The position numbers were made by a program, and so were the translations under genes. A stretch of DNA of 64,000 bases. Source: Dictyostelium discoideum (lineage: Eukaryota). Below are positions 34,850 through 35,736 of this stretch, one piece after another. Every line of letters starts with the position of its first letter. Position 1 is the first letter of the stretch. Location: contig CM000153.2 of NCBI GenBank assembly GCA_000004695.1, positions 2,144,001 through 2,208,000 of the forward strand, given 5' to 3'. The notes under the pieces were generated by a model. The model saw nothing but the letters and a program-made list of their open reading frames with translations. It had not been told where the DNA came from and searched no databases.

Positions 34850-35736
34850 AATGTCAACAGAAATTGTAAGGTTTTTTTTTTTTTTTTATGAATTTCTTAA
34901 AATACACAAATCAATCAAAAAATAAAAAAAATAATAAAAAAAAAAAACAAAATAAAATAGATATTAATATAACTAAAAAAAAAAAAAAAAAAAAATTTTA
35001 ATTAAAATATCTAAAATTAGGATCAACCTTTTGTAGTTGAAGAAATCTTAACAATAATAAAAGAGGTAAATAAACAACATTGACAATATTATTATTATTA
35101 TTATTATTATTATTATTATTATTATTATTATTATTATTATTATTATTATTATTATTATTATTATCATTATTACCATACACATTATAAAGAATATTATATT
35201 AATATAGATATATTTATAGGCAGTTGAAATATCACTTCAAAATACAGTTTATCAACATAAACAGGTACCACAATGGACACAAAGTATCATTGATCACTCA
35301 TTAAAGAAAATATCAGAATTAAATAACAAATCTTATAAATATATAGGTACATAGATTTTCAGAAAAATATTCATTCATTATATAATATAATAAATCATTG
35401 ACTCTAACTTTTTTTTCTCAAAAATTTATAATAATAATAATGTAATAATAATAATAATAATAATAATAATAATAATAATAATAATAATAATAATAATAAT
35501 AATAATAATAATAATAATAATAATAATAATAATAATAATAATAATAATAATAATAATATATATTTTGAATGGATTGATAATATTTAGTAAATTGTTTAAT
35601 TTTTCAAAAAACAGGAGCAGGATTTCATACAGCAAGTTCATGTCTTTGGGACTCTGCAAACGATGGTAGTTGTTCATATAGATGGGAGAATAAGTCAATG
35701 CATTGTATCATAAGTGTTTTTGGATGTAAAATATAA
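34850..35736 (+). CDS. Dynein light chain Tctex-type (DYNLT1-like); 4 exons: 34850-34864, 35021-35065, 35220-35346, 35588-35736; ~111 aa
   Basis: The spliced product ([111 protein letters not shown]) aligns end to end with human DYNLT1. Specific matches are [70 protein letters not shown] and [21 protein letters not shown]. Donors are GTAAGG, GTAAAT and GTACAT. Intron 3 contains a ~120-nt (ATA)n repeat. Confidence 0.8.
35437..35560 (+). repeat. (ATA)n microsatellite of about 40 units within the Tctex intron 3
   Basis: Direct reading of the sequence. Confidence 0.95.

Follow-up and report, generated by a model that had tools for sequence, protein, structure and literature searches.

Shortened public models of a Dictyostelium Tctex-1 dynein light-chain gene end intron 3 at an exonic AG

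The window, by which we mean the whole 64,000-nt stretch of Dictyostelium discoideum DNA that was analyzed (GenBank assembly GCA_000004695.1, contig CM000153.2, positions 2,144,001 to 2,208,000), has a GC content of 12-34% and is rich in homopolymer and AAT/ATT tracts. On its plus strand, at 34851-35736, lies a Tctex-1 dynein light-chain gene of four exons. Exon 1 (34851-34865) supplies the ATG start and encodes MSTEI, and is followed by intron 1 (34866-35020; 155 nt, GTAAGG...TTAG, 9% GC). Exon 2 (35021-35065) contributes 15 residues to the spliced translation, and intron 2 (35066-35219, 154 nt) has an (ATT)n microsatellite inside it at 35087-35172. Exon 3 (35220-35346, 127 nt) encodes AVEISLQ...KSYKYI together with the first base of the Val63 codon, and intron 3 (35347-35587; 241 nt, GTACAT...TTTAG, 8% GC) is accordingly in phase 1. 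The coding part of exon 4 (35588-35736) ends with the stop codon TAA at 35734-35736. Spliced in this way, the gene yields the protein deposited as XP_638499.2 and Q54PG1.2. Over the 6.9 kb around the gene, the sequence matches a chromosome-level D. discoideum assembly, GCA_054883475.1 (locus L001), at 99.2-99.8% identity. Scans of the whole window for tRNAs and Rfam families returned no matches, and the open reading frames across intron 3 were, on both strands, translated repeats only, so there is nothing else hidden in that intron.

Intron 3 was the intron of interest. Exon 3 ends ...AAATATATAG at position 35346, the donor GT occupies 35347-35348, and between 35347 and 35614 the dinucleotide AG occurs at just four places: 35353-35354, 35361-35362, 35586-35587, and 35613-35614. 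The AG at 35586-35587 (atatttAG|T) is the first one past an AG-free stretch of 224 nt. The AG at 35613-35614 spans the Thr71-Gly72 codon boundary (ACA|GGA), and as acceptors the two would end the intron at 35587 or 35614, 27 nt apart and in the same frame. Joining 35346 to 35588 gave a spliced translation of 111 aa, while joining 35346 to 35615 gave one of 102 aa. The first-pass annotation had placed the start of the intron at 35347 and the two candidate acceptors at 35587 and 35614, and all three coordinates proved correct to the base. Since three AGs fall within 12 nt at 35609-35620 (acAGgAGcAGga), the presence of two nearby AGs is in itself unremarkable; what matters is its effect on gene models. 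The 27 nt at stake (35588-35614) encode VNCLIFQKT when read with the G at 35346, and they also include the first base of the Gly72 codon. Their GC content is 14.8%, compared with 26-35% in the other exon sequence and 8-9% in the introns.

Residue for residue, the 111-aa product is the same as EAL65149.2, XP_638499.2, and Q54PG1.2 of D. discoideum AX4, an entry named cytoplasmic dynein light chain or dynein light chain Tctex-type. The window gene and the AX4 reference gene are very probably the same locus. Given this identity, the gene and its correct model were already known: the reference annotation has both gene and protein, with the right exons. The three accessions are all at sequence version 2, from which it follows that the AX4 sequence has been revised once. 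We found nothing specific on the structure of this gene in the Dictyostelium and Tctex literature.

We then compared the two products with the Tctex-1 family. Against the Pfam profile PF03645 (Tctex-1; cut-off 22.8) the long form scored 119 bits and spanned profile positions 3-95 of 95, while the short form scored 83.9 bits. The long form matched human DYNLT1 chains in the PDB with E = 6e-38 and without a gap across the disputed segment. Identity to human DYNLT1 and Drosophila Tctex-1 (PDB 8rgi_A, 8j07, 1ygt, 2pg1) was about 53%, with the strand KYIV(T/N)C(V/L)I(M/F)QK(N/T)GAG aligned ungapped, and the Dictyostelium gene is the amoebozoan orthologue of DYNLT1. In a set of 20 Tctex-1 proteins whose sources run from amoebae to insects and flatworms, residues V63, I67, Q69, G72, A73, and G74 were invariant, and C65 and K70 were at least 90% conserved. 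The KYIVxCxIxQK-GAG strand-turn motif was present only when the 35587 acceptor was used. As the first-pass annotation had held, splicing to 35614 deletes a conserved strand: nine residues are lost, among them the invariant V63, I67, and Q69.

An AlphaFold2 model of the long form had a pLDDT of 85.5 and a pTM of 0.77, with helices at residues 11-26 and 33-53 and strands at 59-69, 89-96, and 100-110. The nine residues at stake, 63-71, account for 7 of the 11 positions in strand 59-69, the first long strand. In a Foldseek search with the long model, TM values to DYNLT1 chain 8rgi_A were 0.87/0.92, and the top 39 matches were all Tctex-family chains. On the tests of profile, motif, and fold, the product is a full member of the Tctex-1/DYNLT family. 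The short form was modeled with a pLDDT of 71.8 and a pTM of 0.62. Because AlphaFold folds the short form too, though less confidently, we rejected the difference between the two models as decisive evidence and treat the structural argument as supportive.

To this we added a comparison of orthologous loci from Dictyostelium group 4, namely the window and nine genomes (three D. discoideum, two D. cf. discoideum, two D. citrinum, D. firmibasis, and D. purpureum), along with the outgroups Tieghemostelium lacteum and Heterostelium album; related loci were retrieved with the short form and with homologues. The upstream TTTAG was invariant in 10 out of 10 group 4 sequences. The downstream AG was gone from D. 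cf. discoideum L002, which has ACC GGA, and from D. purpureum L004, which has ACT GGA. That the second AG was lost in both by a synonymous change of the Thr codon argues that it is not under selection. Within the 27 nt, the changes GTA/GTT, ATT/ATA, and ACA/ACC/ACT were synonymous and TTA/GTA exchanged Leu for Val, four of the five distinct changes thus being synonymous and in the third codon position. Identity to D. purpureum was 24/27 in the 27-nt segment and 101/120 in the next 120 nt of the exon, as against 12/27 for the intron's final 27 nt, with the step up in conservation falling precisely at 35588.

Neither T. lacteum nor H. album has intron 3, and in both the segment is read through in a continuous exon. 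The identical string TTTCAAAAAACAGGAGCAGGATTTCAT occurs in the middle of the T. lacteum exon, where ACAGGA is simply Thr-Gly. Taken together, the comparisons show 35588-35614 to be coding and the AG at 35613-35614 to lack conservation as a signal. Among the species sampled, only those of Dictyostelium group 4 had intron 3, which was either gained in group 4 or lost elsewhere. Introns 1 and 2 are common to D. discoideum and both outgroups (T. lacteum, L007 2001-2571; H. album, L008 2001-2573).

The 27 nt are under coding constraint, the second AG is not conserved, and the long product is the curated protein. With a high degree of confidence we infer that the spliceosome uses 35587, that intron 3 is constitutively spliced from 35347 to that position, and that the AG at 35613-35614 is exonic. 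The first-pass annotation had already preferred 35587, and identity of the product to the curated AX4 protein, the higher profile score, and the coding character of the 27 nt uphold that choice. Its wording fared less well, as it had spoken of a cryptic acceptor and of a "last AG" of the intron; the upstream AG is a conserved acceptor of the ordinary kind, and the "last AG" belongs to the exon. The locus is the single-copy Tctex-1 (DYNLT-type) cytoplasmic dynein light-chain gene of D. discoideum, with this intron as its intron 3. Exon 4 would begin at 35588, its first 27 nt encoding the greater part of the Tctex fold's first long beta-strand, and the AG at 35613-35614 would be the junction of a Thr and a Gly codon (ACA GGA) and no splice signal.

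We also considered true alternative use of the two 3' splice sites, in which both AGs are used and light chains of 111 aa and 102 aa are made. D. discoideum, D. citrinum, and D. firmibasis each have both AGs in frame, and CAG|G is a good generic acceptor. An AG that lies too close to the branch A may be bypassed during AG selection; if the branch site is the proximal GATAAT at 35576-35581, the first AG is only 7 nt past the branch A and occasional bypass would be possible. The arrangement resembles tandem or alternative acceptors, whether NAGNAG-type or longer in-frame pairs, in having two in-frame AGs close together, but it differs from them in that the second AG is unconserved and lies within constrained coding sequence. 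Conservation of both AGs, the mark by which an alternative 3' splice-site event would be recognized, was not found, for the second AG is not under selection and is missing from L002 and D. purpureum. The 102-aa product would also have to do without the invariant V63, I67, and Q69 and without most (7 of 11) of the residues in strand 59-69, and every deposited short form is a prediction labelled "hypothetical protein". We therefore consider the production of two light chains improbable. Metagenome and metatranscriptome contigs were scanned for either spliced junction (TATAAATATATAG N{0,27} GAGCAGGWTTTCATAC), with 0 matches, and no D. discoideum transcript of the gene turned up in the collections searched.

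The repeat tract that fills much of intron 3, which had been noticed at first reading, was resolved by Tandem Repeats Finder as a period-3 (AAT)n/(ATA)n array at 35428-35558 (131 nt, 44.0 copies, 96% matches). Its longest pure (AAT)n run was 114 nt in the window and in L001. Elsewhere the longest pure run measured 117 nt in L002, which has a 30-nt run in addition, 81 nt in L003, 36 nt in L011, and 18 nt in L009. There was none in D. citrinum, which carries (CAAAAA)n in the same place, and no run longer than 9 nt in D. firmibasis or D. purpureum. Across the loci compared, the polymorphism amounted to 0-39 pure units, and intron 3 was shortest in D. purpureum (89 nt) and longest in L002 (284 nt).

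It had been proposed that the length of the microsatellite might tune the choice of acceptor among strains, and that repeat lengths be compared among isolates. That comparison found the repeat to be strongly variable in length, as the proposal would need, and the acceptor and the peptide to be unchanged. The upstream acceptor and the encoded VNCLIFQKT were kept over the full range, from 0 to 39 units, and because the repeat contains no AG, its expansion adds no competing site. Modulation of splice choice by repeat length is thus unsupported, and we regard it as very unlikely. On the favored reading of the intron, the microsatellite would be neutral, fast-evolving filler.

The 102-aa form exists in public databases. 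Its exact sequence is in GenBank as the D. discoideum "hypothetical protein" KAM9942874.1, and near-identical 102-aa sequences are KAM9976731.1 and KAM9955615.1 (D. discoideum), KAN0000524.1 (D. cf. discoideum), and KAN0015016.1 (D. citrinum). A sixth record, the 142-aa KAN0041421.1 of D. citrinum, has the same short junction. These short models represent the same gene, with the same exons 1-3 and the same C-terminus, and take as acceptor the exonic AG equivalent to 35614. All come from a group of seven assemblies with ACTFI* tags, in which the short junction was called in 6 of the 6 that have the exonic AG, while L002, which lacks it, received the long 111-aa form. The warning in the first-pass annotation that automated callers could easily go wrong here was thus well founded: the 102-aa product or the same junction appears in six of seven new Dictyostelium assemblies. 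Loci with wrong models had anywhere from 0 to 38 units in their pure (AAT) runs, and the errors track the exonic AG and not the length of the repeat.

Judging from species names only, Holland et al. 2025 (PMC12745789, PRJNA1300491) is the probable source of the ACTFI* assemblies; the gene caller is not named in the main text of PMC12745789 or in that of its preprint. The low GC content of the 27-nt segment plausibly accounts for the callers' wrong choice. Ab initio callers would choose 35614 because the 27 nt, at 15% GC, look intron-like and CAG|G offers them a good generic acceptor, and the 102-aa form would then be an annotation artefact that lacks nine conserved residues. That the six recent calls are right, with the downstream AG as the sole real acceptor and the 102-aa protein as the true product, is scarcely credible. 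Such a reading is inapplicable to L002 and D. purpureum, which have no AG there, and to the intronless T. lacteum and H. album, and it offers no reason why the 27 nt should be conserved in the manner of coding sequence.

The curated AX4 model, the JGI model of D. purpureum, and the D. firmibasis model are all built on the upstream AG. The D. firmibasis genome has the exonic AG, yet its model takes the upstream one. That genome was annotated with MAKER, which was given Trinity transcripts from RNA-seq together with the D. discoideum proteome (PMC11193728). As the D. discoideum (AX4) proteome was supplied to MAKER, the D. firmibasis model lends mild and non-independent support to the upstream acceptor.

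Two of the deposited models have further faults of their own. In KAN0041421.1 (L010 3001-3789, D. citrinum GCA_054859325.1) the 120-nt intron 2 is read through in frame and without a stop, which inserts VNNSNINNNNNSKNNKNIIMLLHIFYKNIILTYMQISPLQ and constitutes a second annotation error in the same gene. The 389-aa D. firmibasis model KAK5581045.1 (L006 3001-4956) joins the Tctex-1 gene and the CID-domain gene downstream of it into one, by way of a GT-AG "intron" that starts within exon 4, past ...RWENK, and stops shortly before the neighbor's ATG. As a result it is without the Tctex C-terminus SMxCIxSVFGCKI. The fusion is probably the product of read-through transcript assembly.

Thus six public protein records lack nine conserved residues of the Tctex-1 fold, one of them with an intron read through as well, and a seventh, from D. 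firmibasis, is a fusion with the neighboring gene. Orthology assignments, selection scans, and structure predictions made on those proteomes inherit the errors. They exemplify a failure mode of ab initio callers in genomes whose introns have 8-15% GC, where exon starts that are short and very AT-rich are swallowed if an in-frame exonic AG follows. The biology is that of an ordinary intron in a known housekeeping gene for which the reference model is right, and the new and useful part of the analysis is the list of erroneous public models.

The alignments also brought out a candidate branch site. Intron 3 has a single match to WCTAAY, the commonest branch-like motif in D. discoideum introns (Irimia and Roy, PMC2483917). 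This match, TCTAAC at 35403-35408, is followed by a run of eight Ts, and the whole candidate branch box (35403-35416) lies 180 nt upstream of the acceptor. The box was kept as TCTAAC, TCTAAT, or, in L002, CCTAAC in nine sequences from the discoideum group, D. citrinum, and D. firmibasis (the window and eight loci), at distances from the acceptor that ranged by isolate from 93 to 180 nt. No AG occurred between box and acceptor in any of the eight sequences checked (the window and seven loci). Among the 5-11 Gs of this zone none was preceded by A, compared with about 17-67% upstream of the box, in sequences that are related and of low complexity. In D. firmibasis alone, 0 of 11 Gs in the zone followed an A, versus 4 of 8 upstream of the box. 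The conserved GATAAT close to the acceptor, with its branch A 7 nt before the AG, is an alternative and weaker box of the TRAY type, and D. purpureum has TATTAAC at a normal branch distance.

On the strength of these motifs we tentatively suggest that a distant branch site, made up of TCTAAC and the T-run and followed by an AG-exclusion zone, may serve in the splicing of intron 3, a possibility to which we give well under even weight. The spliceosome would then take the first AG past the conserved AG-free zone, and a distant branch site with such a zone would explain why the first AG is chosen. With no signals in the zone, microsatellites would be free to expand and contract there, as (AAT)n in D. 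discoideum and as (CAAAAA)n in D. citrinum. Distant branch points with AG-exclusion zones were reportedly described for human exons by Gooding et al. in 2006. Intron 3 resembles those human introns in having a branch-like box far from the acceptor with no AG between. It differs from them in that the branch here is a candidate motif, that a single intron is concerned, and that AG is rare in the introns of this organism anyway. A distant branch site, if confirmed, would add a little to present knowledge of 3' splice-site definition in Amoebozoa.

Intron 2 has a branch-like box as well. There (window 35195-35219) the four group 4 species share a conserved TATATTAAY box, which precedes the acceptor by about 15-40 nt. 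The window sequence has an AG at 35206-35207, about 5 nt past the box, that is bypassed in favor of the one at 35218-35219, which fits the rule that AGs very near the branch point are skipped.

The microsatellite of intron 2 (28.7 copies in the tandem repeat search) is the exact reverse complement of the repeat in intron 3, and an inverted-repeat search returned the two as arms of 86-87 nt with 99% complementarity. In the minimum-energy fold of 35060-35625 the repeats were paired over about 85 bp with exon 3 looped out, at an energy of -120.7 kcal/mol compared with -69.4 ± 5.3 for shuffled sequences (z = -9.7). The centroid structure did not keep the pairing between introns 2 and 3, as is expected where many registers are possible. 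In the AX4/AX2 lineage the tracts are (ATT)25 in intron 2 and (AAT)38 in intron 3. Wild isolates have 4-10 ATT units in intron 2 and other species have none, the long tract being confined to the window and the L001 lineage. The complementary tracts are thus an accident of one lineage and do not form a conserved element. By analogy with animals, where such a geometry favors exon skipping or circular RNA, pairing of the AX4/AX2 tracts around exon 3 could have a similar effect. The Tctex gene is not among the three for which PMC3946582 validated circular RNAs in Dictyostelium.

The window contains three gaps of exactly 100 N each, at 34481-34580, 51412-51511, and 56851-56950. The first of these falls within the Tctex promoter region, and L001 has 145 nt (2600-2744) in its place. 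Downstream of the Tctex gene, a neighbor on the plus strand starts at 36043 with MDQYNSNNN... and has a long poly-Asn tract encoded by (AAT)n (repeat at 36156-36424). Some models of its orthologues contain a CID domain (PF04818). The orthologue models on deposit are anywhere between 276 and 373 aa long, a spread that suggests variation in repeat length, inconsistent models, or both.
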